From the NCBI RefSeq assembly GCF_006345805.1, contig NC_043006.1, positions 71,920,001 to 71,984,000 of the forward strand: a stretch of 64,000 nucleotides of DNA. Direction: 5' to 3'. This DNA comes from Octopus sinensis (lineage: Eukaryota). The notes under the pieces are model-generated. The model saw only the letters and a list, made by a program, of their open reading frames with translations. It did no database searches and had not been told where the DNA came from. Numbering within the stretch: position 1 is the first letter of the stretch; each line of letters starts with the position of its first letter. Below, piece by piece: positions 15,901-61,200 of the stretch. The position numbers were made by a program, and so were the translations under genes.

Positions 15901-17846
15901 GTGAAAATCTGCAAAGTAGAAACAGTACTGTACTGTATATTTTAAAATTATTTTTATAATCTGTATATATTTATTTTATTATAAATGCAAAACAACACCA
16001 CAGAGGAATCGGCGTAAGTTTAAATAATAAACCGTGACAGGTGAACCGTGATATGGTGATGAATTACTGTATATATATAGGATCTTTTCCTTTTGAACGG
16101 CACATGTCAACACAATTTCTAGTTAACTTTAAAACTTCGTATACTGGTAGAATGTGTCAAAATAAAACATTTTTTTCTCTTCGCTTTCTTGATAAAATTG
16201 TAATTTGTTTAACGTAGTTTAATTTTTCGAATTTTAACCAATGAATCGCCTCTAATTGAGCTAAAATCATTTGCTGTGTCTAAAACTGAGACAACATCTT
16301 GTCACTAACCCTAACCCTCACCCTAACCCTAAATTTTTTTTTCTTAATTGTTAAATTAATTTAATTGTTACACGTGTAAAAAAACGAAAAGCTAAAACAA
16401 AAAGCGTGAGTATAAAATTATAGAATTATTTTGTTTGTTAATTGTTTAAATTATTTTCCATTGCTTTCGTTTTAGTCTTTCATTTTTTTATACGCATAAC
16501 AATTAAATTAATTTAACAAAAAAAATTTAGGGTTAGGGTGAGGTTTAGGGTTAGTGACAGGATGTTGTCTCAGTTTTAGATGCAGCAAATGATTTTAGCT
16601 CAATTAGAGGCGATTCATTGGTTAAAATTCGAAAAATTAAACTACGTTAAACAAACAAATTACAATTTTATCAAGAAAGCGAAGAGAAAAAAATGTTTTA
16701 TTTTGACACATTCTACCAGTATACGAAGTTTTAAAGTGTTTAGTTAACTAGAAATTGTGTTGACATGTGCCGTTCAAAAGGAAAAGATCCTATATATATG
16801 TATATATATGTGTGTATGTGTGTGGAGGCGCAATGGTCCAGTAGTTAGAGCAGTGAATTCACAGTTGTGAGATCGCAGTTTCGATTCCTAGACCAGGTGT
16901 TATGAGCATTTATTGAGCATAAACACCTAAAGTTTCATGAGGCTCCGGCAGGGGGGGGGGGGCAAAACTTGCTGTACTCTTTCACCACAACTTTCTCCCA
17001 CTCTTTCTTCCTTCCTGTTTTTGTTGTACTTGCATTTCAAAGGGCCAGCCTAGTCACTCTCTGTGTCACGCTGAATCTCCCTGAGAACTACATTAAGGGT
17101 ACATGTGTCTGTGGAGTGCTCAGCCACTTAAACGTTAACTTTATGAGCAGGGTGTTCTGTTGATTGGATCAACTGGAACCCTTGTCATAACTGACAGAAT
17201 GCCATGACGATATATATGTATATGTGTGTGTGCACATATATAGTTAATCCAAACAAGAAAGCACAAAAAAACACAACAACGCGAGGACATGGAACAAATA
17301 TAGTATTATTGAACGCTCAGGAATAATATATATATATATATATATATATATGTAAAAAGCACCCACTACACTCACGGAGTGGTTGGCGTTAGGAAGGGCA
17401 TCCAGCCGTAGAAACAGACCCCAGTTAAACCGTCCAACCCATGCTAGCATGGAAAACGGACGCTAAATGATGATGATGATGATATAATTGATATAGGATA
17501 AAAATTCTTTCGGGAAAAAAATTTTATCAATGGCCAGCATATCAAAAAATGCCTTTAAAAGGTAAAATTTTTTTTTACATAATTTACAAGATAAGAGCAG
17601 AAGAAAAATTCTAATGCCAGATACGCCGAAATAAAAAAATTGTCAATAACCATTAAATTTATGCGTCTCGAAATAAACCGATAGAAATCTCTAAAAAATT
17701 CGTTATTACCATATTGGTCCAATTTCGGGGTTAATTCACAAGAAATTTCCCCCTCTTCAGCGGCACATATGCGAGATATAAATGAAATACTTATTCATAC
17801 CCATGGAAGAAGTAAGCATATATATGGACGCTAAATGATGATGATG

Positions 17847-17899
<53 letters not shown>

Positions 17900-19910
17900 T
17901 GATGATGATGAGAGAGAGTAATCCCTTGACTATCACAGGTGTTAAATTCCAAAACCCTCCATGATAGATGAAAATCTGCAAAGTAGAAACAGTACTGTAC
18001 TGTATATTTTTAAAATTATTTTTATAATTTGTATATATTTATTTTATTATAAATGCAAAACAACACCATGGAGGAAGTGATGTAAGCTTAAATAATAAAC
18101 CACAACATGGTGAGGGATTACTGTAATGCGATTTGTGATGATGATGAAGATGCTGATAAAGATGATGCGCCAGATGATGATGATAATGGTAAAGATTCAG
18201 ACGAGCTTCAGAGATCCAGAAAAAGGTTCAATGGCACTGTCCTTCCTCCTCTAACCAAGACATTTAAATAAAAAGAGAATGAATATTTACCTAGTTTATG
18301 ATATTCCTGCAAACTGAAGGACCATTTCCTTGTGACAGCATCTGGAGACATTAAAGGACAATGATGCAAAAAATAATAGATATGATTAAATTGATTGATT
18401 CAATAGATAATTGAAGAAGACTATCAATTCTTTTGCTGGCTGGAGAATGACTCCTCTTCCTATGTTGCTGCCACCTTCCAGCATGCCAGTCCAGTCAAAC
18501 CATTCAACCCATGAAATAATAGAATGCAATTTGAAGAATTTGATTGTCATTTCTAGCAAGTCAGAGAATCCTGTAGATTCCTTTGTTAACTCATCATTTT
18601 TTGAAGTTGATAAACTAAGAACTTTTCAAATAAAGAAGTCACTGTAATCAACTAAAATTCTGAAGACAATGTTCCAGCATGGCTACAGTTCAATGGTTGA
18701 AAGCAGTAAACGAATTTAACAACAAAAGTATATGAAAATTGTATATTGAAAGGGAAACAACATGTAAAAGTATAAAATACAAATATCTAAAACATTCAGG
18801 TTGTTATTGTTGTTTAGGTCATCCCTGGGTGAGCAGGTCTATGATCAAATGCATTCATCTGAAACCGTCTCTTCATTTTAGGGCTAAGTAAGGCTACAGT
18901 TAGTTGCCAATGTCCTTTTCCTTATTTAGGACAGTAGGATATAAGTTGAGAGAATTAAGCTACTATTTCTGGTAGGTCAAGGGACCATACTGAAGATTCC
19001 TGGTGGAGCTCCAGCTTGGCCACAATCTGAAGGTTGGGAGCATAAAAGAGCAAATAAATAGACATATTTTTTTCAATCAGACAAAATGTAATTTAATAAA
19101 TAAAATAAACAAAAACTAAAACAGCAGGAGAGATGCATGGAAATAGCAGTCACATCATCATCATCGTTTAACGTCTGCTTTCCATGCTGGCATGGGTTGG
19201 ACAGTTTGACTGAGGTCTGGACAGCCAGTGGCTGCACCAGGCTCCAATCTGATCTGGCAATGTTTCTACAACTGGATGCCCTTCCTAACACCAACTACTC
19301 CAAGAGCCAGTCAGGTAGACATACATAGATTTTAAAATCACATCCTTCCAGCTTGTAAAAAAAGATGCACTGAATGATGTGATCTTGAATATGCTATAAA
19401 AATAAAGACAGGATGGTCGTGGATGGAATGCTTTCAAGCAATGTTTGCCAGGGTAGTACACTATAACAACATCAACAAAAAGAAAAATATAAAAGTAAAA
19501 AGGCCTTTCTTACCATATTGTTTTGTCTCCATTGTCTTAAATAAATCTATTAGTCCCTGATTAAATATCACATCAACAAGAAATCTTGATGGAGATTCTA
19601 AAATAAATTTAGCTTCAATAACTTTCTTTGGTGTGCTTTTAAAAGTTTTATGATGAGAACTGTTTGCGAAAGAGTTTGTTTTTTGTGGCAACATTCTGCC
19701 ATCTTTATAAATTGTTTGTGTTTTCGATACATAATTACTTTGTGAAACAGATCTACTTGATGTAACTGATGGACTTGAAGGAGGTTTTACAGAATGAGAT
19801 GGAGTTGGCCTTGGTGACAACTGTGCTTTTTTTTCAGCAAGCTTTTGCAGTGCTCTTTGACGGTTTTCATCGATAATTTTCCTCTGCTCAGAGGTGAGAC
19901 AACTAGACAT
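804..19910 (-). CDS. SMARCAL1: SMARCAL1/HARP annealing helicase (SNF2 family), 5' part; 9 coding exons, gene continues beyond window start
   Basis: Spliced GT-AG exons 19910-19514, 18341-18291, 15744-15543, 12080-11930, 9469-9308, 5376-5311, 4096-3962, 2067-1988, 936-804 join in frame. They give [17 protein letters not shown] (RPA-binding motif), a HARP domain, [11 protein letters not shown] (motif I), DESH (motif II), [11 protein letters not shown] (motif III) and [12 protein letters not shown]. Confidence 0.96.
1988..2067 (-). CDS. SMARCAL1: SMARCAL1 exon
   Basis: ccag|[26 protein letters not shown](R)|gtaagt. Confidence 0.94.
3962..4096 (-). CDS. SMARCAL1: SMARCAL1 exon (motif III)
   Basis: [24 protein letters not shown]...[10 protein letters not shown]|gtaagg. 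Confidence 0.95.
5311..5376 (-). CDS. SMARCAL1: SMARCAL1 exon (Walker B DESH)
   Basis: aag|[22 protein letters not shown]|gttagt; not in ORF track. Confidence 0.95.
7026..7590 (+). mobile_element. 5'-truncated CR1/Jockey-group LINE 3' end
   Basis: ORF 7069-7515 [42 protein letters not shown]; (ATT)n tail 7565-7590. Confidence 0.9.
7740..8075 (-). mobile_element. Degenerate RTE-type LINE fragment
   Basis: Translates [35 protein letters not shown]. Confidence 0.65.
9308..9469 (-). CDS. SMARCAL1: SMARCAL1 exon
   Basis: [16 protein letters not shown]...NILSYDLM...KFKIVIM|gtaagt; 162 nt. Confidence 0.93.
9649..10020 (+). mobile_element. R4/Dong-like non-LTR retrotransposon 3' fragment (restriction-like endonuclease)
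   Basis: [44 protein letters not shown]; flanked on both sides by (TAA)n. Confidence 0.7.
10035..11110 (-). mobile_element. Degenerate RTE LINE 3' part
   Basis: [37 protein letters not shown]-terminal CKYC..H...C. Confidence 0.9.
11930..12080 (-). CDS. SMARCAL1: SMARCAL1 exon (Walker A, motif Ia)
   Basis: [24 protein letters not shown]...[17 protein letters not shown]|gtatgt. Confidence 0.96.
14110..14710 (-). mobile_element. Degenerate RTE-like LINE fragment
   Basis: [30 protein letters not shown] / [22 protein letters not shown]. Confidence 0.85.
15543..15744 (-). CDS. SMARCAL1: SMARCAL1 exon (end of HARP, linker, Q-motif LMPFQLEGV)
   Basis: acag|(V)[16 protein letters not shown]...[10 protein letters not shown](K)|gtgagt. 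Confidence 0.92.
15843..16070. mobile_element. Tigger-derived MITE (also 17918-18124, 61371-61590)
   Basis: GTAATCCCT..ATTACT termini and shared internal AAGTAGAAACAGTACTG, matching the ends of the 46572-48504 element. Confidence 0.75.
16080..16790. mobile_element. Palindromic foldback MITE with internal telomeric repeats
   Basis: About 325-bp near-perfect inverted arms starting GGATCTTTTCCTTTTGAACGGC; (TAACCC)n-like blocks in both arms; in (TA)n. Confidence 0.9.
17479..17825 (-). mobile_element. Non-coding hammerhead-bearing retroelement (Penelope/retrozyme-like) with 21-bp flanking duplication
   Basis: GGACGCTAAATGATGATGATG at 17458-17478 and 17826-17846; end shares motifs with 58017-58085. 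Confidence 0.65.
17707..17765 (-). ncRNA. Minimal type I hammerhead ribozyme
   Basis: Minus strand: UGCCG-CUGAAGA-GGGG(G)..CCCC-GAAA-UUGG(A)CCAA-UA^-UGGUA; intact core, stems I/II/III all pair. Confidence 0.8.
18291..18341 (-). CDS. SMARCAL1: SMARCAL1 exon (HARP domain)
   Basis: ccag|(D)[16 protein letters not shown]|gtaaat; 51 nt, phase 1-1; not in ORF track. Confidence 0.9.
   Translation of the reverse strand: MLSQGNGPSVCRNIIN
19514..19910 (-). CDS. SMARCAL1: SMARCAL1 first coding exon (RPA32-binding helix and start of HARP domain)
   Basis: [28 protein letters not shown]...FKTMETKQY; acceptor AG at 19931-19930, donor G|gtaag at 19513. Confidence 0.93.
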
Positions 19911-20169
19911 CTTTATTCATAGAAGTAACCTACAACAAAAGAAATTTTTAGAAATCCTTTTATACCATGGTAATAGATGTTGGATAATGAGTGAAAGAGT
20001 ATGATCACAAATACAAGCAGTTTAAATGGAATTCCTTCAAAACATCTCTGAGAGTAATGTAACTTGACAGGGTGTATAGCTCAGAGATCAGGGGGTCTCT
20101 CCAGATCAAGCCACTATTACTCTGCATTGAAAGGTCAAAGCTCTGGTACAATGGACACATGATTAAAAT

Positions 20170-23479: not shown

Positions 23480-24110
23480 GACTGATTCACCTGCAAGTTG
23501 TGACATACGGTTGTATCTTCGAAATGATTTATTACTCAGACAGGAATATTCTCTGGTGTTTAAGAGGAAGTCGCGACGGTTTTATATGACTGGGTACGGG
23601 ATAATTATGATAATGAAAGTAAATATTTCATTTCTTTCACTTTCTTTAAATAGAGATGATGTAATAAATAATGGACAAACATTAGAATCATTAAAAAAGG
23701 TCTCTAATATTAAAAACTTATCTAATATTTAAAACTTATCTATACTTACATTAAAAATTAAATAAGCTGGGATTTCTTCATATAAAATCACTTTCATGTA
23801 GGTAGAAGATGACTCAAGTCAGCTTCATAAAAGAAATACTAAATAGCAGAGGGAAGAAATTTCTGATAAGCATATCAAGAGTAAATTATAAACTTAATTT
23901 TTGTTCTGTTTTAAGGGAGCAATGACATTTAACCGTTTGAGTAACAGTTGTAAACACCATCGTGCTCTTTTGGTTATGAGGAAAATAAACTTTAAAACGG
24001 ACAATCACAGTATAAGTTACCTAAATATATTCTTTCCACTAGATTCGTTGGACCGAATTAAAACTTGATAGTTTGCCATCCATTTTTTGTACCATTTTTG
24101 TTTTGTATTA
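23480..24110 (-). promoter_or_regulatory. Candidate SMARCAL1 promoter / non-coding 5' exon(s)
   Basis: Unique CpG-containing sequence with minus-strand donors CAG|GTGAAT (23490) and TAG|GTAACT (24020); the SMARCAL1 ATG exon is preceded by an acceptor. Confidence 0.3.
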
Positions 24111-24224
24111 TTTTCTTTTCTTTATTTTTCCTACTAATTAATCAAACATATAGTCTTCGTATATATATATCAGAGATGCATATTGAAAAAAAGGTGGTTT
24201 TCTATCCAATAACACATGTTCAAC

Positions 24225-24872: not shown

Positions 24873-24939
24873 CTATAAACTTATAGTTATCGTTATTTCT
24901 CACATACTACATATGTATGTATGTACAAATGAAAACCTA

Positions 24940-27127: not shown

Positions 27128-27159
<32 letters not shown>

Positions 27160-27166
27160 TATATAT

Positions 27167-27747: not shown

Positions 27748-27840
27748 ATATATATATGGGAACGTCTTTCACAGCGGTGGTGCCCCAGTATGGCCGCGGC
27801 CTTCGGGCTAAAACATTTAAAAGGATTTTAAGGATTTATA

Positions 27841-28375: not shown

Positions 28376-29355
28376 TTACATACACATTCCATTTGCATCT
28401 ATGTTCATTGATACACACTTAACCATTACAGGTAGCTTATCTGGTATTCCTTGATGAAATCTGCACAGACTCCGTTTAAATGTGATGGGATCCTTTTCCT
28501 CTTTAATCAGTTTTGGGACAATGTTAAACAGGGCAGGGCCTGTTGAGGAAAAGAAATTATGTCGCAGTGTACCTATATGTTGTGATCTTGTATTGGGCAG
28601 GGGACGTATGGCCCGTGGTCCCAGCCTTGGATGAACCTTGAAACTAATGTTCAGGTCATTTGGGCAATGCTGGCGGTACATTCTCCACATCGTACAAATG
28701 ATGTACTGCTCGCAGCGACGCTGGAGAGAGTAGAGTTTCAAGGCTTTAAGGCGGTCCCAGTAATCGAGGTCAGTCATGCCTTCAATTCGTTTAGTGAGTG
28801 CCATCTGGGGTGATTCAATCCTCGAGATGTTTTGTTTTGTATGGGGAGATCACAAGGGGCAGCAATATTCGAGGTGTGGCCGTACAAAGGAGAAAAGTGG
28901 AATAATGACGCCTAGTTCTCTGGACCGGAAGGTTCTTAAGATCCAGGAGCTTGTAGCGGGCGAAATTGATTAGTAAAGAATATTATGATGTGTTGATAGT
29001 TAGCAGTTACGATAAAAATTTGTTGTTATAATTGCATGTTGTAGGATAAGAGGTTAGAAAGGATCAAGTGGTGAAAACATTTTTTCGGCCTAGCTAAAGG
29101 CATCTGGAAAATCTAAAACTGCTGTCAGAGAAAAACCATTGTTCCACTGTGGGAAAAGTTCTGTAGCAGTGTTAATTTAAATTTGGCTGTGGTGGATCGA
29201 ATCCGCTTCATGCTTGCAAGATTCACTACAAGCTCATCCTACGTGCTATATCGACCTTATTGTTGATGTGGGCACTCCAACTGAGATTGTTATCAACAAT
29301 TACACGCAGGTCTCTGATATTATTAGATGCTGTGAGCGGTTCCCTAGAAGGAAGA
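28376..29355 (-). mobile_element. Degenerate CR1/Jockey-group LINE fragment interrupted by a solo LTR
   Basis: IRDLRVIVDNNLSWSAHI / VRPHLEYC / YWDRLKALKLYSLQRR / GPALFNIVP. Confidence 0.85.
28952..29230. mobile_element. Solo LTR (probably Gypsy-type)
   Basis: TGTAG...CTACA termini, 4-bp TSD AGCT (28948-51, 29231-34). Confidence 0.75.
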
Positions 29356-35149: not shown

Positions 35150-36149
35150 ATAATTATTTTCTTAAGTAAGAAGATGGATTTGGTATTAATCTTTATTTTG
35201 TACAATGGTAATAATATTTACTAACAATAGTTACTGCTTGAAATACTAATGAGGCTGTAGTGATCCACAGATCTAATCAGGATGCCAGAAGGTATATGTG
35301 TGCGTGTGTAGATATATGTATGCATGTGCATCTGTGTGTATGGGTAGGGCGGGGCAGGGTATGTATGCGTATGTGCATATGTGCATGTATGCACATGACA
35401 TGCAAGTGTGTGTGTGTTTATATCTATGGGTAGATATATATCTATGCTCATGTAAATATATGTATATGAGAGTGTGTGTGTATGTATATGTGTGTCGTGC
35501 ATGTGTATATACATAAAAATATATTTATGTATTTAGGGGCCCAAGTGTATGTATGTGTATATGTAAATACATATGCATGCATACATGTACGTATATGTGT
35601 ATGTGTATATATATATATATATATAAAGACAGATATATATATATATATATAGGCACAGGGATGAGTGATTCACCCTTGGTGATACAGACGCCAAGCAGGT
35701 CAGATTGCCTGTGTACTACTCCAGTCTCGAGGCAAGCGTGACAACACACTACTCATGAGGCTATCTTCTAACCATAAATTATACCAAGTACAGCTGAGAT
35801 TGATTGGATGGGTGGGTGGCCAATGTTCCCTGTGTGAGTGCATTTATGAGCGAAAGTGTGTGTATATGTATACGCATCCTGATCTAAGCTAGTTAGCTAA
35901 ACAACTTTCCGCCCCCTAGATATCACAGCCTGCGTATATCTCTCTCCCTTCTAATACCATTACTCTGTCTTAAACCCAATGTAACTCAATCCATCCATTA
36001 ACTTCCTCTACAAACTTTTTTTTTTTAATTGACTATTATTTATCTATATTTACAAGTGTTTGCAACTCTTACTGAGAAAAGATAATAGTATTAGAATATT
36101 GTAGTGATGCTTCATTCCATAAAAAACTCAGGATCTTTAGCGAGACACA

Positions 36150-36267
36150 AATCTTTATGTATAGATGTATCTGATGAGACCCAGACCGCAAAATTGATGT
36201 AACACATGTTGAAAGTAGTCCCACCCATAAGGATGGGTCGAAACAACCATTGTACAAAATAAAGATT
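36150..36267 (+). ncRNA. Hammerhead ribozyme fold (proximal stem I imperfect)
   Basis: CUGAUGA(36171)-GACCCA..UGGGUC-GAAA-CAA(CCA)UUG-UA^; distal helix AAUCUUUAU/AUAAAGAUU. Confidence 0.65.
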
Positions 36268-39151
36268 AATACCAAATCCATCTTCTCGTTACTTAAGAAA
36301 TTATTATTATTATTATCTCAACTAACATTATGGAATTCCTGAAGTAGATCCAATGGAAACATACCTCAACTGTGGATGACACCAGTTAGCCCAAACTGTG
36401 CCAGTTCCGCCTGACGGGCTCCTGTGCCGGTGACATGTAAAAAAGTACCATCTGAACGTGGCCGATGCCAGTACCCTCTGACTGGCTCCTGTGCTGGTGG
36501 CATGTAAAAAACACCATATGTGATTGACCCCAGGACTGCCTGACTGGCCCCCATACTGGTGGCACATAAAAAGCACCATCGGAATGTGGCCAATATCAGT
36601 ACCCCATGACTGACACCCGTATTGATGGCACGTAAAAACCACTATCCGAATGTGATTGATGCCAGGCCTGCCACACTGGCTCCTGTGCTGGTGGCTCATG
36701 AAAAGCACCCACTACACTCTCGGAGATATGCCACTTTTTCTGAATTTTATGAGAGAATTATTTTATTTGTAAACCCTTTCAGTACCAAGTAAATCCTTCT
36801 CTGTAATATTTTTATAATATTGATATTCTCATGTTTAATTGATATAATTTAATGCCAAAAATAAACATTTTTGGTGTGGATTCTAAGAACATTAATAGAG
36901 CAAATTGTTATGTTTTGTTTCTTTCGATTGTTTGGTTTAGCAGAGGGGATTGCACCCATGGAGTTTGCTGGCTCCTGAAAGACCAGTGAGGTCATTGTGG
37001 TTGATTTATTTGAACAACTGCAAGTTTTGGGCAGGGAGGGATACCACAGGCCTGACATGCTGGGAAGAAAAGACTGAGCAAAGTGATTAGTGAGAGAGCT
37101 TGGGGTTGGGAAGGATAGACCTGTAATGAGCTGGCACAAAATTAGTCAGCTTTCATGAGTAAGAGTTGTAGAAGAGGAGGTAGACTGATGAGATGGTACA
37201 TCTATGATCCAGGAACTGGTGTGTTTTAGTAAGCAACTTTATGTCAAGTAGCTGTGTGGCCTTTTTTTTTAAATGTGGTCTGGAATGTTTGTATGTGTAG
37301 CAGCAGTATGTGTATGACTGACAGTATACCAGCTATGACTGTCCATACATTTTTGTATAAGTAGTGTATCTGGGATCACATAGTTCATTGTGTTTTTGTT
37401 TGCAAATGGCTGTGGTGTAGTTGGAGGAGGTTTGGCTGCTTTTTTTCTAAACAGGAAAAGCAACCATACTGAAACACAAGGCTTCTGTAAGAAGTCATTC
37501 TTTCAAATCTTCAGGTTGTAAAGCTTTAATACTCATTTGCTATAAAACTTTTATGGTAAATGTGGTGTATAAAAGATTGTGCATGTGTGGTTAGGAAGCT
37601 TGCTTCCCCACCATGTGGTTTTAGGTTCAGTTCTACTATGCAACTCTTTGGATAAGTGTCTTCTATTATAGCCCCAAGTCATCCAAAGCCTTCTGACTGG
37701 ATTTGGTAGACAGAAACTGAAAGAAGCCCATTGTATATTTGTGTTTACTCTTGTTTTGACATCATTTGACGGTTGTAAACAAGCATGTTGTTTATTTCCA
37801 GTTTTCTGTGAAAAATATGTCTGATCACGTGGTTATATAATTATCTTGCTTGAAAACAGATAAGGGTTGACAGCCGGAAGGACATCCAGCCATAGGAAAT
37901 CTACGGCAAACTCCATCTGATCCATGCAAGCATGGGAAAATGGATATTATATGATGATGAGTATTTTAAATTAAATCATTGAGGTTGATTGCTGAGGAGT
38001 GCAATCCTTACAGAAAACAATGGTGAAACTTGTGTTATCATATTTAATAATAATAATAAATACTAAGTATCAAAAATCCAGTTAGTAATAATTATTTGGT
38101 AGAGAAAAGATAACATTAATTCAATGATTGATATTTATTTCACTCATTTCAGCAAATATGGATGATATTAGTACTTGTTTCAATATTATGAAACCTCCTC
38201 AGAAAAGCATAAACCTCCCTGTACTTACTGAGGTGTTTACAGACTGTGTGATTTTCTGTCTATTTTTGTATAGCTTAAGTGAGATTTCATTCTTCTTCAA
38301 TTAACTATTTTTATAGCTAGGATCTCTGTTGTTTGTCACTAAACCATGAAGTGGGAGTGGCACACATTAATGGAGACAGTAAAGATTTTGGGTGGTTCAG
38401 TTTTGGTTGGAACATATAATAGCCTTGGAGTTTTGTGCTCTGTGATCTTTCATGTGAAACTTGAGCTGTGGTCTCTACCTCCATTTTTTTGTGTATGAGC
38501 ATTAGATGGCAGAATTGGTGTGTTATGAAAATACTGTATTTGATGGTATAAAAGACACACAGGTATATTAAATGCACCACAATTTCAGCAACATACTCAG
38601 CAAAAAGTGAGTGTCTGAGGAAAGCATTAGCTTATGGGAGGCCTAACTTTGTGTATAGACTCAAGGTAATTTTTTTCTTTTTGTGAGAAGAAAATGCCAC
38701 ATGCTATCAAATATGGTACCTTGTGGTATTTCTCTCCAATTCATTTACATCTTTTTATGCCTAGGTCATATTTTATTTATTTTCTTTGTTCTCCTCTGGG
38801 GTTGATAAAATAACTACCAAACCAAGTATTGGATTCAATGTACAATGACTGAAACCAATAAAAAAAAATCTAAATGTATTTTAACTCTTTAGCATTCGGA
38901 TTGCACTGTCAAATGCAAAGCTTATTTACTCAAATTGTTTTGAATTAATCCCGCATTATCTTGTAGCTTCAGGATTTCAATGACGTGATTGTTTACTCTT
39001 AGAATTACATTGTAGGGTAGGTGTGAGAGGCTGGATGTGGCTGGTTTGAATATAAAATAGATAGGACATTAGGGCCGCATATGACTGGTTTGAATGCTAA
39101 ATGGTTAATGTTGTTTTCTTTCTTTTTGTCAGGTGATATTTTAATTGCTGA

Positions 39152-46279: not shown

Positions 46280-46311
<32 letters not shown>

Positions 46312-49300
46312 TACACACACACACACACATCTACATACACACTTTATTAATAAAGCTGTAAAAGCTTAACAAAAATTGTTACTCAAAGTTTCACGCTCCC
46401 ATTCGTTGGACAAGCAGGAACGTGAAACTCTAAGTAACAGTGTTTGTGATGTCTTTGCAGCTTTATTAATAAAGCATATTACTCTACCTCCAGTATTTGA
46501 GTACTATTTTTTCCCACCTTGTTTCACATTTATGTGCTTACTCTGGTGTGTGTGTATATATATATATATATTGTAATCACTTGCCATATTGTGGTTCACC
46601 TATCACACCCTCAGTACATCATGGATTTTTCTGGCTAATATATGTAAATTTATATCGCAGGTTTCTGCGGTGAATAGGTATTTATATTTTTTTTTTAGAT
46701 TTTAATTATTTCTGTGGTAAAATAAGCATTTTCACGCTTAAAAATTAATAAATAGAAATACAGTACAGTACTGTATAGCACATTAATTAAAATATATTAA
46801 AGAAAATATGTAGTGTAGATGAGTAAACAAAGAATCAGTCATCATCATCATCATCATTATCGTTTAACATCCGCTTTCCATGCTAGCATGGGTTGGTCGG
46901 TTCAACTGGGGTCTGGGAAGCCCGAAGGCTGCACCAGGCCAGTCATATCTGGCGGTGTTTCTACAGCTGGATGCCCTTCCTAACGCCAACCACTCCGTGA
47001 GTGTAGTGGGTGCTTTTTATATGCCACCGACACAGGTGCCAGACGAGGCTGGTGAACGGCCATGCTTGGACGGTGCTTTTTATGTGCCACCGGCACGGAG
47101 GCCAGGCGAGGTTGGCACAGCCACGATCGGATGGTGTTTGTTACGTGCCACCAGCATGGAGGCCAGTCGATGCGGTGCTGGCTACGGCCACGTTTGGATG
47201 GTTCTCTTATGTGCCACTGGCATTGGTACCATAACTACAAATTATATTGATGTTGATCGATTTTGATTTGATTTTTTTGATTTCCATATAATGAAACTAA
47301 GGAGGCAAGTGTGTGGTGGTGTTTTACTTCATCTCTGAAGTCAAGGTTTAGCTTCTCCTATTGGACAATGCTGGAGGTCATGTGCTGTACCTGTCGTATG
47401 AGGGCACACAAATCAAATTTTTACCGCGAAACACCACACCACTGATCCAGCCCATAGATCAAAGTGTTATTCATGCTTTTAAGGTGCTCTATATGCAAAT
47501 CTTCCTGCAACACCTGCTTGAGACTATGGACTTGGATGGTATCTTCTCACCGAAGGAGTACTGGCATGGGTACACCATTGCAACATATTCAGAAGGCCAT
47601 AAAGGAGATGAAGAACAAAACTTTGAATGCCAGCTGGAAGAAATTGTGGCCTGATGAAATCCACCACTCTGCAGTAGATAAGACAGTGAAGCTGGCAAAA
47701 TTGCTAGGAGGAGATGGCTTCACCGATATGATTATCGAGGACGTTAGTAACCTGATCGAAGCCCACTCAGATCCGTTAATGATAGAGATGACGAAGTCAG
47801 AAAATGAGGAAGAAGAAGAAGTTGGCCTGTCATTAGAACACTTCGCAACTCCAGCAAAAACGGCAAAACAACTTCAGAGAATGGCAGAAGATTGGGATTC
47901 CCATATGATTCATGTGTTGCAGTTCAGAAATGCAGCTGATAGAGCCATAGAAGTTTATAAAAATCTTACACAGAAGAAAAGGCAGTGCCAACAATCACTA
48001 TGTTCCTCACCAAAAAAAAAAAAGAGAAAAGATATGGGTACTCCTAAGAGTGTGGAGAGAGTTTATAAAAGGTTAAATATCATCATCATCATCATTGTTT
48101 AACGTCTGCTTTCCATGCTGGCATGAGTTGGACAGTTTGACTGAGGACTGGCAAGCCAAGAGGCTGCACCAGGCTCCAATCTGATTTAGCAAGGTTTCTA
48201 CAGCTGGATGCCTTTCCTAATGCCAACTACTCTGAGAGTATACTGTTGTCAGTCTGGCGGCACTGGCATCTGCCACAACTATAATTTCACTTGACTCAAC
48301 AGGTCTTCTCCCTAAGTTTCTGCATTGACCACCAGATAAGGGATCGAGGGACCCTATTTAAGGCTTTATAATAAAATAAATGCATGCAAACTATAAAAAT
48401 AATTTTTCAAAAAATATACACTGCAGTACTGTTTCTACTTTGTGGATTTTCACCTATTGCGGAAGTTTCGGAATGTAACACCCGCTATAATTGAGGGATT
48501 ACTGTGTGTGTGTGTATATATATATATATATGAATATTGTGCATGGATGTGTATTTATAATTTCAGATACAAGGGTTTTTGCAGTTCGTGAAGAAGATAT
48601 ATGCTAACTTGCCCAATTACTTGCACAAGATATTTGAACCTCGGCAGCAAATAAAAGTGAAAGATATCACAGAGGTGAATGTTGATGTCTATCTTCAGGA
48701 GATCTTCACAGTTACCACTATTATGACCGACAAAAAAAATGCTGACAATCAAAGTGTATCTGTAAGTTTACTTAGTTGTTGCACATCTCATTGTTATTGT
48801 TGTTGTTTTCTGTCTCTTTTTTGCATCATTCATATATACCTGTCTCTATGTTATATCAAACCACACTGGTTACATGTTATACTGGAATGCAGTAAATGCC
48901 TCCAGATCACACCAGAATACTCTGTTGGATTACATTGTCTTGTGTTACACCAGACTACACCAAATATCTACATGTTACTCCTGACCACACCATATGGCTA
49001 CATCCTACACCTGACTGCACTTAATGCTTGCATATTACATCAGAATACACTAAATGCCTAAATCTTACACCAGACTACACTAAATGCCTACATGTTATAC
49101 CAAACCAAATTACAGATCTTTCTGAAGCGTCTATATTTTATTTGTTTCCAATTTTAGTACAACATAATTCCACGAGCTGTTCTGTCCCTCAAAGTCCTCG
49201 CTGAGCTTCCAATTATTGTGGTTCTTATGTACCAGATCTATAAACCCAGTGTTGACTATGATGTCTCAGAACTCATACCTCTCATAATGAACACCATCAC

Positions 49301-52178
49301 TCTTCAGCCTCAAGCCCAGCTTCGGTAAGTTTTTTCTTCCTCAATTACACCCTGAGATGTCTTGTTCATGTCATGAGTTAGTTCAACAGTAAATCAGGCT
49401 CTCTGATTTTGTGCAGTGCATCATCATCATCATAATCTTCATCCTCATTTAATGTGTATTTTCCATACTGCTATTGGTTGGACAATTTGAGAGAAGCAGA
49501 CAAGGCCAGAAGCCACACCAGGTTCCATCGTCTGTTTTAGCTTGGTTTCTACAGCTGAATGTAGACTTGTGTCTTATCCAGAGGATGATTTAATTCTCAT
49601 TCTGTGTTTTGTTTTCTGGTCAGAACACTTTGTATCTATTTTATATTACTTCAGTTCACCTACTGTAGCTTTCAGGAATATATAATGAATCATCTGGGGA
49701 GTGTACAGTGTTTTATAAAATAAAATTATAATGTAGGGTATCTAAGAGATTCCACCACGCTGAAAATAGCAGTCAAAACTTGACTCTAAGACTACATTAA
49801 ATGTTCATATAGCACCAGGAGAGAAGACAAAGAGACAAAATAAACTAGCAAAAAATTACTGGATAATTCCAGATCCTGGATTTCTGGCTTTGCATAGAGA
49901 TGCTCTGCCTTCATCAGTAGAATAGTCTCAGATAGTGTTTTATAAAATAGATAACAATTTTTGCCTTACATTCCCCCTGGTTTGTAGGATCATTAAATTT
50001 AGTACCAGTCAGGTACTGAGGATAGATAACATTGAACACTTTTCTCTCCTTTTGCAACCTCAAAGTAAAATTAGAAATCCTTGTAATATTCCTTCTATTT
50101 TAATATTTAATTTTTATTCTACTTCAGCAATAATCCAGCTTTTAACAAAGAAGTGTTTGTGGACTTTATTGGTGCCCAGATCAAGACCCTGTCTTTTCTT
50201 GCATATATCATCAAATCTTACCAAGTAATAACAAACAAGCTTTCTTTTCCTTTTCTTTGTTGCATTTCTTTTTACTACATTATTTACATTTGACGGATAT
50301 TTGTCCTGTTTGTTGTTAACACGACGTTTCGGCTGATATACCCTCCAGACTTCATCAGGTGTCTTGGGGAAATTTCGAACCTGGATTCTCATTCCTAAAG
50401 TATTTTTCAATGTTGTTGTTGTTAATATTGTTCAGGTCACTGCCTGGAATCGAGCTCGGAATCTTGGGGTTAGTAGCCCGCACTCTTAATCACTACACCA
50501 TTGCCAGTGTTGGTGTGTTTATGTCCTCATAACTCAGTGGTTCGGCAAAAGAGACTGGAAGAATAAATACTAGGCTTCAAAAAAATAAGTCGTAGGGTCG
50601 ATTTGTTCCAACTAAATAAACCAGCATGGCCACAGTCAAATGACTGAAACAGGTAAAATAATAAAAGAAAGCAAGAATTTAGAAACTGCCAGATAATGAA
50701 ATAATTTACTTTTTATGATAGAACTCAAAGTAGATAAAGCTGTAAATAATAGTGTGTAATTATATATTGGGTTCAAAAACTCCTTTGGATTGTGAAAGTC
50801 TAGAGGTTGCCTGTGGCATTTAACTCTTTAGTATTCAGATGACTTGGCCAATCTATTACTTAATTCAAATTGTTTTGTACCCTTAACCCTTTCGTTACTA
50901 TATTTCTGACCAAAATACACCTCTCATGAGTTTCAATTAAATTCTAAAAAAACATGGATTTAGACTAGTTTCATTAAACAACTGTAACTTTTTTTACTTA
51001 TAAACATATTAATGTGATATTTGGAATATAATTAAAGAAAATGTTCTTAATCAATTCTATTGCATAACTTTTGTCTCAAAGTGACTCTAATTACAGGTAA
51101 ATCCAGGTAAACTGAGCAAAAGGTAAAAATATAAAAGTTTTGTTTAAACATCATCATAGAAAATTAATCATCATCTAATATTTAATTGGGTATGCAACAA
51201 AATTTTTGATATAGAAGAACTGTGCACATCACTAGATTATCAGATGAATTTAATGCACAAAAGAACATGTATACCATAAAGGTGAAATAAACTGAAATAC
51301 TGGAATCTACCGTAAGTTTGACTGAACTAAAAAATCGGTCAAAAAATGATATACGACCCTGGTTATGGTATGGAAGTGATAAATTCCAGACACATTGTAC
51401 CCTAAGCCATGCTGACTAACATTGTTTTCCCTGTATAAAAACTAAATCCACAGCAGTACCCAGTATTTGCTTCACAAATTTTCCAAACTTTGATCCCCCA
51501 TTTCGTGGGCTTTCCTGGTATATACTGTTTGTTTACATTCTGTGTAACAGTTTGTTTCAACAGTGATTGCTTCAAACAAGCATACTGAAAAAAATACTTT
51601 TACCCTTTGTATTCAAAAACTGTTGGAGTGATCTTTATATTTGTATTTGAAAATGTTACTAATAATGGCTCATTTGTTATATTTAAATACTCATAGGATC
51701 AAGTATCCCAGAATTCCCAGCAGTTGGTACAAGGACTGCTCGGTTTGTTTACACTGTGTCCGCCTGAAGTTGCTCATTTGCGCAAGGAACTATTGATTGC
51801 CGCACGTCACATACTCACCACTGATCTACGCAACAGTAAGTCACCTTTTCTTGGCTTTGTTTCTTTGCCTTTTTTTTTTCTGTATTGTAGCAGTTAGCTG
51901 GTAGAATTTTTATTCACTGACTCCCTCTGTATGCTTGTATGTATGTAAGAACCCTTATCTTGAAATATGGTTGTAAAATGAGCTATGTTGTACATTTCCA
52001 GTCTTCAGTGTAAAATGTGTCTGGCTATGGGGAACAGGAAAGGCATACTGTTGTAGAATTTCTGTCTGACTCCATGCAAGCACAGAAAAGTGAACATTAA
52101 ACAATGGTGATGAGTGTTTGTGTGTACATATGTATATATCTTTGTATGTGTGTGTATATATGCATCTGTATGTATGTC

Positions 52179-52212
<34 letters not shown>

Positions 52213-55200
52213 GATATATATATATAAGGTTAATCCAAACATAAAAACACAACAACGCAAGGACGTGGAACAAGTATTGTGTTATTGGATGCTCAGGGAA
52301 GGAAAGAAAGAAGGAGGACTTAATGTTTTGAGCGGAGCTCTTCGTCAGAAACATAGAAAAAGGAAAGATCCAAGGAATGGAAGATGGAGGAAAAAAAAAT
52401 TGCCAACGATACACACGTGGTATGTACATACATGCATACATGCGTGCATGTATGTATGTATGTATGTACGTATGTATATATGCATGCATGGTGCAATGGG
52501 TAAATTGTTGCTGTTTTGTATTTTTAATTTCTTGCATGTGCATTGTTTGTTTTAGATTTTGTTGACTACACAGTATAGTAGGGTCAGCTGGGAACCATCT
52601 TTGAGAAAAGCAGCAGCATGACGCAATTCACTCTGCCAGAAATTTGGAAATGACATGCTATACTGCTTGGCATTCATGCTGGAAGCTCCAATACAAACAT
52701 TTCAGAGTGTTTGGGTGTCAATCTGAGGATAGTGCAGAGAATTCGGAAAGAGTTGGATAAGTCTGATGGTGATTACGATGGTACAGCAGCTTAGAAAACT
52801 CACTCTGATTGTTCTGATAAGAAAAGAACTCCTGCATTTGTTGGTGATATCCAGACCATGATTGACAACGATCCTGCCAACTCAATCAGGTCCATCGCCA
52901 GGGACATGGGAGTATCTGAGTTCCTTGTCAGGAAGGTAGTGCATGAAGACATTTGATATTCCTCATACAATTTTTATCTCAAGCTATCAAGGACAAGAAG
53001 AACGACTGCACTACAAAGCTTTTGAACAAACTCAAGCATCCCTTCCAATTGAACACACTTCGGTTTTTCTCAGTCAAGAAAAATTTCTACCAGGATCAGA
53101 TGGTGAACATACAGAACAGCTGTTGGCTTGCTGTGTCCCTGAAACATGTACTTGTCATGCTACGATTTCATGGGTGCCATTTACTTGACACCAGCAACGG
53201 TCCACTTGTCCATGCTTGCATGGGTCAGACAATTTGGTGAGAGAAATATTCTATGGCTAGATGCCCTTCCTGTTACCAACCGTCACTTGTTTCCAAGTAG
53301 GATAATTTTTTCCTCATGACCAGGCATGTTTTTCCACAGAAGTCTGTAAATGATCAGCCTTGCTTGCATGTGATAATGCTCATTTGCAGCCTAAAAATGG
53401 TGTCTGGACAAGGGCATACACAAATGTACGTGCATGCATACCTGTATGCACAGGTAGCGTGTTTCAGCTTCTGTATATCAAATCCACTTGCAAGGCTTTG
53501 GTTGACCTGGGGCTTTAGTAGAAGACATTTGCTCGAGGTGTCTTATGAGGGATGGAACCGAAGACCATATGGTTGGGAATCAAGCTTCTTAATCTCACTG
53601 CAAGTGAAGGCGTGTGGCTTAGTGGTGAGGATATTCTGTGCATGATCGTAAGGTCATGAATTCAATTCCTGGTGAAGCGTTGTGTCCTTGAGCAAGACGC
53701 TTTATTTCCCATTGCTCCAGTTCACTCATCTGGCAAAAATGAGTTTACCTGTATTTCAAAGGACTGACCTTGTTACATTCTGTGTCATGCTGAATTTGAT
53801 TAAGAACTATATTGAGGATACAAGTGTCTGTGGAGTGTTCAGTCACTTGCACATTAATTTCATGAGCAGGCTGTTCTGTTGATTGGACCAACTGAAACCC
53901 CTTGTCGTCTTAATTGACAGGGTGCCAGTTAATCTTGCAGCTATACCTGTGTCTAATTGTTGTGTTTTAACTGTTTATCCTTTCTGACACCAACTACCAA
54001 AACATTTTACTATTTGTTTTTTCTTCCAGAATTTGTTCCCTGTATTGAAAAAATGTTTCAGGAGAATGTAGTGATCGGCAGTGGTTGGACAGCACAAGAA
54101 TCTCACAGGTTTGTATAGTTTGACTTACTGTAAAAACTTTTCTCATTTTGTACTGTTCAGAGCAGTGATTCTCAACTAGGGCCCAAATGACCCTTGAGAG
54201 TCCATATAAGATTTGCTGTTAAGGTTTATGTGCCATGAACTGGTTATACTTCTACAATACACAAAATGTTTTAATAATTTTTTATACAATTCTTAATAAT
54301 ATTTAATTATAAAAATATGACATTGAAGTCTGTGTGAGTCTCATCATCATCATCATCATTTAACAACTGCTTTCCATGGTGATATGGGTTGGGCAGTATA
54401 ACAGGAGCTGGCTAAGCAGAAGACTGCACTAGGCTTCAGTGTTTGTTTTGGCATGATTTTTATGGCTGGATATCCTTCCTAACATCAACCACTCTACAGA
54501 GTAGATTGAGTGCTTTTTATATGGCACCAGCATGACCAAGGTCAGTTTTGGCATGGTTTTTGCACCTGGATGCCCTCCCAAATGCCAACCACTTTACAGT
54601 GTGGACTAGGAATAGGCAGAAATGGTTGAGAACCACTGGTTTAGAGAAATGAAGTGCTATGGAACGTAGCACTACTATTAGTGTCTGTTTTTCCCTCTTC
54701 TATTTCAAAAATGATTTATTTTCTCTTTGTTATTTCAGGCCACTTGCTTATAGCACTTTAGCTGACTTGATTCACCACGTGCGCCAAAATCTGCCCCTTA
54801 ATGATCTCTCTTTGGCGGTGAATGTTTTTGCCAAGAACGTACATGATGAGTCCCTGCCAAGCAGTATACAGACGATGTCCTGCAAACTGCTTCTCAATCT
54901 TGTGGAATGCATTCGGACCAAGAGCGATCAAGAGAGTGGCAATGTAAGCCCCCACTTTTCTTCTCTTTGTCATATAATACACTTTATAATATATAGCTGC
55001 AAATGAACAGAAATCTCGTTAACTAGATTATTAAATTTACTTCCCCAGGGAACTTATTTTTCTCTTGGATTGATTGAGTCATTAAGAGCTGAATGTTATT
55101 GTTTAACCCCAAGTAAGGCTTGACTGAGTAGTTTTATTATCATAGAAATTCTGTTTTAGTCATACTGTTTCTTGGATTATATTAATTAATGTGTCCTCCT

Positions 55201-58200
55201 TTTTAAGAATATAGCATGTAATTTAGGGAGATTTGATTGCTATCTCAAGCAGCGAATTTGCATAGTTGTTAGAGTATCAGATGAAATGCTTTGCTGCATT
55301 TATTCCAGCTTCTTGAGTTCTGAGTTCAAATCCTGCCAAGATCAACTTTGCCTTTCATCTTTCCTGCCCAGATGACTAAAATGGTGACGCCTTGGAATAT
55401 TTTTTAAAGCTTTACATTCTGAGTTCAAATACCCCATTCTTATCGGTTTACATGGTCTGAACTCATTGCAAAGAAATCAAATCTAAAAGAACAGGCAAAA
55501 AAAAATTGATATTTGGATTTTACTTGAAATGTAATTAAAAACTGAGATTGTAACATCTTGAATTTCAAGCAAAAAGAAAAAAAAACTTTATTGTCTTAAA
55601 TTTAAACTTCAGTTTAAATCCTTAGGATCTTGGTTATGAATAGATCTGAGTTTTTATTTATTTGTAAATTTTAAATAAAGGAAATGTAAAGTTTAAATTT
55701 GAATTGAATTTCCCTTCTCTAGTGGAGACAATTTTTCTGCTTGACATGATTCTTATGAAGAAACTGGCTGTACATTGTCCTTGATAATGTTTGTAGTAAT
55801 GTGATTCTCCACAAATCACAACATTCATCATCATCATTGTCATTTAGCATCTGCTTTCTATGTTGGCATAGGTTGGACAGTTTGAGGTCAGGCAAGCTGA
55901 AACTGCACCAGGCTCCAGTCTGACCTGGCAAGATTTCTGCAGCTGGATGCCCTTCTTAATGCCAACTACACCGAGAGTGTAGTAAGTGCTTTTTACATGC
56001 CTGCCTTTCATTTTCAGGAATTGCTCTGTATTATCCAATGTTTCTTTGTTACTTTAAATACAGTAAAGTGTGATTTGAGAGGGGATTCAGCTTGCTATTT
56101 CTAGCAGTTTTAGTGACCATGTAGAGAATCTTTCAGTAGCTCATGTCAACCTTGTATTGTTATAATGTTTTACTTTTGTTTTTCTTTTTCAAACATACAG
56201 GGCCGTGAATTGTTTATGAGAATGTTGGAGGTTTTTGTTTTAAAATTTAAAACAATTACCAAAATTCAGCTTCCACAGATCCTCCAGAAATGGTAAGAAC
56301 ATCAGTTTTGCTTACATGCTTCTTCATCATTCTTTGTGGGTGTTAAATTTCATATAGTGGCAAGCAGGCAAAACCGTTAGCACATTGGGCAAAATGTTTA
56401 GAAATATTTCTTTCAGCTCTTTCTGTTTTGAGTTCAAATACTGCTCTGGTTAACTCTGCCTTTCAGTACTTCATGATTGATAAAATAAATTAGCAGTCAA
56501 GTACTGGGGTCAATGTAATCTCATGATGGATGCCTACTAATCAGCCTTGACTCACTGATTTTCTTCTGAATGGTGGAGTACCTAAAGTACCAATGTTGAA
56601 GAAATACAATACAAAATTTTGAATCTCGTTGAGGCAAGTGAAAATCAAATCAAATCAAAACAAATCAAAATAGATGAACATCAATGGAATTTGTATCTTT
56701 GTGGTACCAGTGCCGGTGGCACGTGGCACACAAGAAAACCATCCGAACGTGGTCGTAGCCAGTACCGCATCGACTGGCCTCCGTGCTGTGGGCACGTAAC
56801 AAACACCATCCGATCGTGGCCGTTTGCCAGCCTCATCTGGCACCTGTGTCGGTGGCACATAAAAACACCATCCGAGCGTGGCCGTCTGCCAGCCTCGTCT
56901 GGCACCTGTGTCGGTGGCACATAAAAAACACCATCCGAGCGTGGCCGTTTGCCAGCCTCGTCTGGCACCTGTGTCGGTGGCACATAAAATCACCCACTAC
57001 ACTCTCGGAGTGGTTGGCGTTAGGAAGGGCATCCAGCTGTAGAAACACTGCCAGATCTGACTGGACTGGTGCAGCTTTCGGGCTCCCCAGACCCCAGTTG
57101 AACCTTCCAACCCATGCTAGCATGGAAAGCGGACGTTAAATGATGATGATGATGATGATTATTACCTGTAACAGAGTGGAATTGATTCCTTTTATTCTAA
57201 TTTTCAGTATTGTGATTCATGTATTGAAACTTTAACTTTATCCTGTTGCACTGAGATTAAACATCATCAATGTGATAATGTCCATTTTTCTAAGCTTCTC
57301 AGAGTTGAACAGGATTTAGACAGTTTGACCAGGTCTGGTATGCCGAGGGGCTGCACCAGATTCCAGTCTGATTTGGCATGGTTTCTATGGCTGGATGCTC
57401 TTCTTAACGCCATAATTAGAATGTATGTGTGTATGTATGTATGTTTATGCCCTTACACTGTAAAAGCATTCATGGTAAGAGGGAGATTATGGAGAATAGA
57501 AGATATAATGTACTATCAGTATGCTGTATCACTTTGTATTATGAGTAGCAACTAAAAGAGTTGGTGTCAAGAATGGCAACTTACCCAGAAATATTCTCTA
57601 AAAGTCCTGTCCAACTCTTGGAAACTTAGAAGAGTGGACATTATAACATCAATGATAAGTATACATACACAATATATATATATATATATCATCAAGATAT
57701 ATATTTATATATATCATGTACACTCTAGTGTCTGCCTTGGCATGAATTGCAACACCTGGATACCCTTCTTAATGCTAACCACTTAATGTGTACTGTGTGC
57801 TTTTTTCATGCCAGAAGTAATGGTGAGGTTACTATGCATTTTGCAGAAGTACACTCTTTGAGTGGAGGCAGCTTTATGCTAAGAGACAAGCGGTTAAAGT
57901 ATGGTATATATACTTATGCATGTATGTATACGCATACATATGCATATGGATGCATGATATATATCATCATCATCATCGTGTAACATCTGTTTTCCATGCT
58001 AGCATATATATATATATAGGGTAAAAATTAATTAATAATTTTATCAAGTAGTCAGCAAGTTAAAAAAACCTTTTTAGGTGAATTATAGAAAATATTCTAT
58101 AATTATATACATAATTATAATCAGGGGTCAGCTAATTGCCTCGCCACATACTGAATTAGAAATAGACACTGTCTTTTCAACTATCATAAAAATCTCCGAG

Positions 58201-61200
58201 ACAATAGCACTTTTTTATGCAGGCAAAAAGAAAAATGATGAATCCACATGACTTTGGTTAATCACAGACGCGTTTCGAATTTAAAGTAAATTATATTTAC
58301 CTATTATTCTCCTCCGTGTGATACTCCAAGTTATAAATTTGCAAATGTTAGGGTTAAATATGTATGCAATCAAGTGTCATCACATAACTAATATTCGACC
58401 TCACTCATATTTATGCTTGTATGTATATGCATACTTATTCATATGGATGCATGAGATACATATATATGTGTGGGAGCTATATATTTCTAATCATACCTAT
58501 TCTATTTGTTGTAGTCGACAGAGTCAGCTGAATGCAGAGAAGTGTGCAGCAGATAGCAATGCCAAACCAGATGTAAAGACTCCAGAAATTACAACAGTTG
58601 ATGTAAAACCAATTCTTCTGGAAATGAAAGAAAAAGAGGAGAAGGTAGGAGAAATGCATTTGTCTCTTTGAAGATTGTTTAGAAGGGAGCTATTTATATG
58701 CCAATTTAAAAGACGGAGGTCTCATGGCAAAGAGCATCAGAAATCTGTGATAAAAATATCTTTGGGATCAAATTTGTCTGTTACTTGTGTCACTGAGGAC
58801 AGCAGTAGATCTCCTCTATTTCCCATACAGTGTTATCTGTATAACTAAAATGCCTATACACTCCACCTAAACAACTTTCCAGGCAGTTTGGCATCAACAT
58901 TCATCATTCACCCATACAGTTTATCCACCTCTTGGTGAGCTGGTAGAATCGTTAGCACGCTGGGCGAAATGCGTAGCCGTATTTCGTCTACCACTACGTC
59001 CTGGGTTCAAATTCCGCCGAGGTCGACTTAGCCTTTCATCCTCTCGGGGTCGATAAATTAAGTACCAGTTGCGCATTGGGGTCGATATAATCGACTTAAT
59101 CCATTTGTCTGTCCTTGTTTGTCCCCTCTGTGTTTAGCCCCTTGTGGGTAATAAAGAAATAGGTATCCATCATGCTCCCACCTCTATCCTTTCTAGTGCT
59201 GGTGCCATAGTACAAAGCATGCAGCTATGTCTTGTCAAAGATACAAGAACCTCCTTAATGCTGATATCACAAATAAAAATATAAAAAAACAACCTCATTT
59301 TACACTTGTAGCAGCTGGAATATTCCAAACTGCATGTTTGGTTTCAGTGATGAGTGAGTCTAATGTACTTCCAGCTGGTGGATACATACATGTACACACA
59401 TACTCATGTATTCGTTTATGCATACATACAGTGTCCCCCAACTGGCTCCTGTGCTGGTGGCACGTAAAAAGCATCAGTCAAACATGGTCAATATCAGTGC
59501 TGCCCGACTGGAGTGGTTGGTGTTAGGAAGGGCATCCAGCTGTAGAAACATTGCCAGATCAGATTGGTGCCTGGTGCAGCCTACTGATTTGCCAGACCTC
59601 AGTCAAACTGTCCAATCCATGCCAGCATGGAAAACTGACATTAAACGATGATGATGATGATGATTATACATGTACATCATCATTTAGCATCCATTGTCCA
59701 CGCTGGCATGGGTTAGATGGTTTGATCAGGTCTGCACCAGACTCCAGTCTGATTTGGCATGGTTTCTACAGCTGGATGCCCTTTCTAGCACCAACCACTC
59801 TGAGAGTATAGCAGGTGCTTTTTACATGCCATCAGCGTGGATGCCATTGATCTGACACTAGCATCAGCCATATATATCATCATCATCATCATTTAATGTC
59901 CATTGTCCATGCTGGCATGGGTTAGACAGTTTGACTGGGGCTGGTATATTGGAAGGCTGCACCAAACTCCAGTCTGATATGTCATGGTTTTCTATGGCTG
60001 GACACCCTTCCTAATGCCAACCACTCTGCTATCTGAAATGATCCTTGACCAACTAATGCTAGCAGGGAAAAGCTACTCTTAAATGAATATAGAATAGCAG
60101 TTGAAAGTAAACCAAGTACACTGCCCAGTTTAATACCACCACTTCCAGGGTTTACTCTATTACAATATTCAGACGAAATCTTCAGTTTCCTTCTAACCAT
60201 GTTTTGTCAGTAGATAGACTGATCTTCAGCAGTATCAGGCTTGCTGGCATATGATGGCCGGAAAATGTCATATGTACTAGCTTCTCCCAACACGACCATA
60301 GTAAAACAATAACAAGAAACATTTTAGTGAATGTGCTGTTAATCATCACTCATTGTCTCTTTCTTTTCTCTCTTACAGACTGCTCGGTTTGGGGTGTCCG
60401 CAACTCCGTACACAACATATTCTGTGGCGGACTGCCGAAGTCTTGTGAAGACGTTAGTGTGTGGCGTAAAGACTATAACCTGGGGTTTAATAGCATGTAA
60501 AGGAGGACCAGATTTAAACAAACAGTTCCTGCCTAAAGAGATCTTGGTTTTCATCCGCCTTGTGCGTTATGCATTGCAGGCTCTGGATATTTATACAGTG
60601 AATCTCTCGTCTACAGGACAGGCCATGGTCAGACCGGCTGTGTAAGTTATCATTTCAGGCATTTGGCCATCTTCATTGTTTTTTTCTCTCTCTTTCTTTC
60701 AATTTTATTTTTTCAGCTATTAGAATGTCATACATGCACTCCTTGTGCATTTGACAGACATATACATACACATTTTCACATGCATTGGCTCAGTCATTTA
60801 TGCTTCATTTGTAAAGGCGTTTGGCTTAGTGGTTAGGGTATTCGGCTCACAATCATATGGCCATGAGTTCAATTCCTGGCAGCACGTTGTGTCCTTGAGC
60901 AAGACACTTTATTTTACATCGCTCCAGTCCACTCAGCTGACAAAAATGAGTTGTACCTGTATTTCAAATGGCCAGCCATGTCACATTCTGTGTCGCACTG
61001 AATCTCCCTGAGAACTACACTAAGGGTACGTGTGTCTGGAGTACTCAGCCACTTGCATGTTAATTTCATGAGCAGGCTGTTTTGTTGTTCGGATCAACTC
61101 GAATCCTTGTTGATATTAACTGACAGTGTGCCAGTTTGTTACACTCACTCATACACATACACACTGTCACATGCTTACAAATATACACAGTCAAGATTAT

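Follow-up and report, generated by a model that had tools for sequence, protein, structure and literature searches.

The window analyzed here is a stretch of 64,000 nucleotides of the Octopus sinensis genome (contig NC_043006.1 of assembly GCF_006345805.1, positions 71,920,001 to 71,984,000) and contains parts of two genes. Exons with matches to SNF2 and HARP are located on the minus strand (11744-12124 and 19464-19916), and exons of Tra1/TRRAP on the plus strand (54653-55003 and 60343-60642), as judged by Pfam, which gave no match for two of the six frames scanned. Intron fragments resembling LINE RTs or transposases lie at 7030-7515, 10289-10960, 14122-15009, 28376-28849, and 47352-48102 (translations judged by eye), and an inverted-repeat, MITE-like element of about 208 nt at 31660-31867 gave a weak MIR5998 score on both strands. 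Rfam miRNA matches in the window were also considered and proved to be microsatellites. No protein match to a Penelope-like element (PLE), that is, to an ORF with RT and GIY-YIG, was present within the window.

The first-pass annotation of this DNA had described five main hammerhead ribozyme folds, all of which we found: at 17707-17765, 49866-49923, 50318-50364, and 58261-58322 on the minus strand and at 36166-36256 on the plus strand. Its term "near-complete" suits the folds at 17707 and 49866, in which the core and all stems are intact and which are the only fully intact copies in the window, but is generous for the one it placed at 36150, in which CpG-type changes break both inner pairs of stem III. 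One or two defects are found in each of the remaining copies, including a single stem II mismatch at 50318 and a U4G change in the core at 58261. The motif is in excess over shuffled sequence: a stem-aware descriptor allowing at most one defect detected three sites, as compared with a mean of 0.05 and a maximum of one in 40 block shuffles, and a looser descriptor, tuned after the sites were known, detected exactly the five sites, as compared with a mean of 0.06 and a maximum of two in 100 shuffles. The Rfam search that it had put forward as a check failed to detect the folds, with no hammerhead match at E ≤ 1 in the window and, among 10 family and PLE loci, a single weak match to Hammerhead_1 (24.7 bits, E 0.077, gathering score 34). 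Minimum free energy folding of monomers gave a full hammerhead for none of seven stretches over hammerhead sites, and among these seven the stretch at 58261 alone was more stable than its shuffles (z -2.1).

To what kind of element do the folds belong? A search of the 2.72-Gb genome bore out the claim of multiple high-copy families, returning 2317 candidates for F17, 1120 for F36, 2617 for F49, 3653 for F50, 4590 for F52, 386 for F58, and 1130 for F12 (40 candidates were scored per family). Exact cores numbered 1521 for F50, 471 for the F17 group, 142 for F49, and 11 for F58, with no occurrence of the corresponding reversed patterns. Two of three sites described as decayed, 12298 and 52317, are relics of the further families F12 and F52, whereas the third, a hammerhead-like stretch at 60193..60240 (minus strand), yielded one candidate in the genome search, namely itself, and is not counted here. 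The window held seven family matches, as compared with 11 matches across the 472.5 kb that flank the loci, or 1.5 per 64 kb, and none in 92 kb of tRNA loci, figures that do not indicate enrichment because the probes were mostly drawn from the window's own families.

The F17 copy (17482..17818, minus strand) is a 5'-truncated member, about 95% identical, of an ORF-less unit of 462 nt and 31% GC; it has a direct repeat of about 21 nt at both flanks, and the predicted cut in its minimal hammerhead falls at 17712/17711. This hammerhead has the same orientation as a SMARCAL1-like gene, between two of whose exons it is located, and is perhaps tolerated there because a monomer would, by prediction, not cut. 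The F49 copy (49721..49936, minus strand; unit about 498 nt) has a 16-nt direct repeat at both flanks and an unpaired A at either side of stem II. The F58 copy (58014..58406, minus strand; unit about 532 nt) has a stem III consisting of a 6-nt palindrome. The F50 copy (50276..50501, minus strand) belongs to a tRNA-headed SINE of 276 nt, with its head at about 50430-50501 and a predicted cut at 50323/50322. The F36 copy (35225..36405, plus strand) is old (75%-84%) and is accompanied by a short inverted arm at 35155-35209. The F52 copy (52229..52421, minus strand) is an element of about 200 nt between (TA)n runs, with a decayed hammerhead at about 52320-52352; intact hammerheads were seen in nine of 15 copies of its family. 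Finally, the F12 copy (12264..12413, minus strand) represents an old family (76%-81%) with a degenerate minimal hammerhead and has several defects itself; all four other aligned copies retain the palindromic stem III and three of the four retain GAAA, and the family's 5' core has degenerated. A further hammerhead-like repeat, having a stem III with a 1-nt loop, was observed at L287:1010-1060 (element sense), outside the window families.

In three families some copies have their own 3' end just ahead of them, with periods of 461-464 (F17), 532-538 (F58), and 498 (F49). Four of six close same-strand F17 pairs that were fetched are true head-to-tail units, among them a trimer with three intact cores (locus L338), and the other two look like local duplications. 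A partly decayed F58 dimer was found; tandem units with complete hammerheads were seen for F17 only (the trimer), none being seen for F49 or F50, and 50 F50 loci contained no head-to-tail array. Because F17, F49, and F58 units directly follow their own 3' end, they have no room for an ORF. Moreover, sense-strand PLE coding sequence was found upstream in none of 115 family loci and none of 30 unbiased F50 loci. Thus, the description "short non-coding elements" stands for the ORF-less units of F17, F49, F50, and F58 but not for F36, which is at least 2 kb in length; no ORF was found in F36, nor in as much as 6 kb of sequence upstream of it at six loci. Across the families, the majority of copies in the genome stand alone and are truncated and decaying.

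The hammerheads are conserved family-wide. The core (CUGANGA/GAAA/UH, with paired stems I and II) was intact in 20 of 20 copies for F17, 10 of 20 for F36, 18 of 20 for F49, 14 of 20 for F50, 9 of 15 for F52, and 12 of 20 for F58. The proposal that stems covary among family copies was confirmed by comparing F17 with a sister family, which is 77% identical to it, keeps all stems through double changes, and shows compensatory pairs in all three. In an alignment of 27 of the 39 core-matching copies (those left out were mostly near-identical rows), 97.5% of 364 cells from F17 and its sister were paired, as compared with 30%-46% in slid controls. Four of 14 pairs had changed on both sides, three of them family-wide with one per stem, which amounts to about three events on one branch (F17 versus sister). 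Judging from sequence, then, the hammerhead structure is evidently under selection. Stem III has no stable fold alone but is predicted to form a self-duplex (-1.7 to -9.9 kcal/mol); the stem III of PLE hammerheads is likewise described, in the accessible part of PMC4209133, as stable only as a duplex.

We also considered how the copies are inserted. Four features that the accessible part of PMC8557442 describes for PLEs were all encountered here: partial tandems, an optional tail, microsatellite ends, and inverted arms at the 5' end. An inverted arm of the same family adjoined the 5' end at 16 of 34 loci for F17, 21 of 50 for F50, 8 of 20 for F36, 9 of 50 for F49, 3 of 31 for F58, and 0 of 15 for F52, and the optional F50 tail (about 27 nt) was present at 14 of 30 unbiased loci. 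The microsatellite preference asserted previously applies to most families, which have (TA)n ends, but the 3' end of F50 mostly does not abut (TA)n. Nor are all the elements unrelated, as had been stated: F17, F49, and F58 have a 3' tail of about 90 nt in common (F17-F49, z 7.0; F17-F58, z 4.7; cross-family profile matches, E 0.004-0.7), and the F52 hammerhead and the 3' end of NepB, an autonomous family of the Neptune type, are homologous (z 8.6).

F50 differs from the other families in its head, which contains A and B boxes and aligns in register with genomic tRNAs. Alignment scores for seven full heads against 35 genomic tRNAs of nine anticodon types, a comparison that does not resolve the isotype, reached 48, as compared with 21 ± 4 (maximum 41) for shuffles and 22-30 for the other families. 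Copies reaching into the head made up 13 of 30 unbiased copies. The Rfam tRNA score of the head was just 12.6 bits, ARAGORN detected no tRNA anywhere in the window, and running it with relaxed settings on the F50 heads returned noise. On the strength of the alignment, we take the F50 head to be tRNA-derived and promoter-like.

Autonomous PLEs, the partners that the annotation had proposed to look for, are present in the genome as Neptune-type RT/GIY-YIG elements with minimal hammerheads of their own. At least 147 GIY-YIG matches were found (150 of 5029 candidates were scored), several of them in open frames of 781 aa. The elements combine an RT with a C-terminal GIY-YIG, have a CX4CxxC linker, by which motif alone they are assigned to the Neptune type, and carry 3' minimal hammerheads, some with a U3-A8 core, a variant that is also described in the accessible part of PMC4209133. 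The NepB family has 3565 candidates and a hammerhead in its 3' UTR (L158-L186; for example, L158:2721-2765, element sense), whose core position 6 is U (20) or C (1) and never A in all 21 real matches from 30 loci. The search for a common 3' end yielded a candidate partner for F52, in NepB, but none for the other families: six PLE 3' ends were compared, and no autonomous element among them (NepB included) had the tail of F17, F49, and F58, nor did any have the 3' end of F50 or F36.

Among these autonomous elements is a young Neptune-type family (L147, L151-L153, and L156) with intact RT/GIY-YIG frames of 780-781 aa and U3-A8 hammerheads; identity among L151-L156 is 98%-99%, and the family has likely been active recently. 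At L151 a full-length PLE is flanked by a 653-nt duplication (1-653 and 5936-6591; 99% identical), which arose either as a target duplication of exceptional length or through a tandem event at the locus. F17-like copies lie beside L151 in this duplicated flank and are absent from the other nine loci, and we rejected F17 as part of the young family. In a divergent group of GIY-YIG PLEs (L103, L118, and L096), a CUGANGA scan behind the stop codon found no hammerhead. A PLE piece near F50 in L096 was discounted as a link, about 550 nt of microsatellite lying in between.

A second connection to NepB comes from composite insertions. At two loci (L074/L157 and L267/L283) a family copy directly adjoins a 5'-truncated NepB in a head-to-head fusion that has no spacer; in both, microsatellite borders the side of the family copy, and the whole composite at L283 is bounded by (TA)n. 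Such fusions are rare (two of 134 rows, some duplicate, and none in the last 55), and in a third case (L160) family and NepB are joined via (TA)n. The fusions suggest that NepB is a likely partner and that priming can involve two templates; they could instead be deletions between nested insertions. The idea that F49 forms the NepB 3' end was rejected: NepB has a 3' end of its own, and F49 was found in just two of 30 loci, inverted. A more speculative proposal, which we consider possible but would not favor at even odds, is that F50, as a Pol III tRNA-SINE, acquired its ribozyme and tail from a Penelope element and is moved by PLE rather than LINE enzymes, and that the mixed fusions reflect PLE insertions in which each of the two DNA ends primes on an RNA of its own. 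Inverted pLTRs would then arise from two templates, and the F17/F49/F58 group would be driven by NepB.

Taken as a whole, these findings are best explained, with a probability of about 0.75, by at least seven abundant families of protein-less hammerhead elements that are copied by Penelope-type enzymes. Source loci for a first step are at hand, as head-to-tail units exist for F17 and F50 has its internal promoter-like head. In multimeric transcripts, two hammerheads would pair via the palindromic stem III and cut, freeing RNAs of one unit each, which for the F17 trimer would measure 468 nt; a single copy is expected to stay uncut. Copies begin about 60-280 nt downstream of the cut site and read through it, and they can continue beyond the 5' start of the unit into the unit's 3' end; the template for copying would therefore be circular or a multimer left uncut. 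A PLE endonuclease would then nick DNA, mostly at (TA)n, and the RT would prime at the fixed 3' tail; a second priming on the other DNA end would often follow, creating the inverted 5' arms. Read by hand, none of 13 inverted F50 arms and none of 13 secondary F17 arms started within 3 nt of the predicted cut. Raw RNA reads of a related species, which were searched for F50 and F49 (fragmented 150-nt reads, about 6% of each run), contained F50 in both orientations, with 91% continuing into unlike flanks, and are mainly read-through; they showed no end pile-up for F50, and no circle-type joint was found among the 15 joints listed (there were 38 more). As far as the accessible parts of the sources go, cleavage by PLE minimal hammerheads is poor in vitro (PMC4209133), and of nine frog dimers eight did not cut and one did (10.64898/2026.07.22.740005).

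Might the elements be PLE parasites whose hammerhead is a protein-binding or packaging fold, or an inherited passenger, and not a cutting ribozyme? Copies that read through the cut site, 5' ends that do not cluster there, the family-wide lack of A6 in NepB, the lack of end pile-up in the related species' RNA reads, and the weak published activity in vitro would all fit. We nevertheless regard this as unlikely: the six masters (F17, F36, F49, F50, F52, and F58) retain the whole catalytic core and UH, and core deviations do not exceed those of the flank in five of six families (for example, 2/220 versus 162/1582 for F49, but 13/200 versus 110/1544 for F36), a comparison that is weak because the flank columns include microsatellite. 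Lunse et al. have reportedly observed dimer cleavage of minimal hammerhead variants.

Somewhat less probable again is that the families are solo pLTRs, that is, 5'-truncated 3' ends of autonomous PLEs and not independent parasites. PLE copies are mostly 5'-truncated (accessible parts of PMC8557442 and PMC4209133), F52 resembles the NepB 3' end, F36 resembles a Neptune 3' UTR in being long and of low complexity, and the GIY-YIG candidates scored were just 150 of the 5029. Against this, F17, F49, and F58 units sit directly behind their own 3' end with no space for an ORF, and F50 begins with a tRNA head, which leaves F36, F52, and F12 as families to which the explanation could apply. That the motifs arose by chance in AT-rich, repeat-rich DNA, an explanation compatible with the silence of Rfam and the unremarkable folding of monomers and one that holds for 60193 as far as examined, is refuted for the other seven of the eight sites by the shuffle controls, the family-wide conservation, and the compensatory pairs and can be dismissed.

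The hammerhead folds in the window are thus real, and they mostly represent an already known kind of element. Like the metazoan PLE minimal hammerheads of Cervera and de la Pena 2014 (PMC4209133, accessible part), they have a type I core, a stem I of 4-6 bp, a tiny palindromic stem III, and an unpaired base before stem II, and they occur as many families per genome, mostly as single motifs, with opposite-strand pairs 100-700 bp apart. They differ in that the window families are ORF-less, that in some of them stem II is flanked by an additional base on either side, and that stem III can reach 5 bp, closed by a 1-nt loop. To Neptune-type PLEs the window elements are similar in (TA)n preference, partial tandems, and inversions, but they lack a protein. 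Short non-autonomous Penelope elements are known from butterflies (PMC6685494, accessible part). With non-LTR retrozymes, as portrayed in the accessible parts of PMC7229834 and 10.64898/2026.07.22.740005, our families share non-coding units of low GC with a type I hammerhead in each, head-to-tail dimers and a trimer, and co-occurrence with PLEs. The differences are that window units measure 460-530 nt rather than about 300 nt, that copies are mainly dispersed monomers with inverted arms rather than long arrays, that the hammerheads are minimal rather than canonical, and that the copies lie in introns. The window families are, accordingly, non-autonomous derivatives with PLE minimal hammerheads, which is to say retrozymes as that part of PMC7229834 presents them. 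F50 further resembles the SINE-like hammerhead repeats SMalpha and Sj-alpha of Schistosoma, in which, on the partial record of PMC6765202 and PMC8490949, a Pol III-type promoter is followed by a type I hammerhead; F50 is unlike them in its PLE-type minimal hammerhead, its inverted 5' arms, its optional tail of about 27 nt, and the absence of head-to-tail arrays from its 50 loci.

We found no cephalopod report of such elements in the literature, and the accessible text of PMC4209133 names no cephalopod, although the supplements of PMC4209133 and 10.64898/2026.07.22.740005 may list some, and the words "hammerhead" and "ribozyme" do not occur in the accessible text or supplement of a 2026 octopus repeat annotation (PMC13282606). 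Follow-up is worthwhile for the tRNA-headed F50 and for the mixed junctions; a tRNA-headed SINE that is moved by a PLE would, if true, add a SINE-partner pairing that we did not find in the literature. Our analysis extends PLE minimal hammerheads and retrozymes to an octopus genome. Given young families (95% identical), a trimer that occurs naturally with intact cores, and a candidate partner, the role of the hammerhead in PLEs and the origin of inverted pLTRs are now testable.
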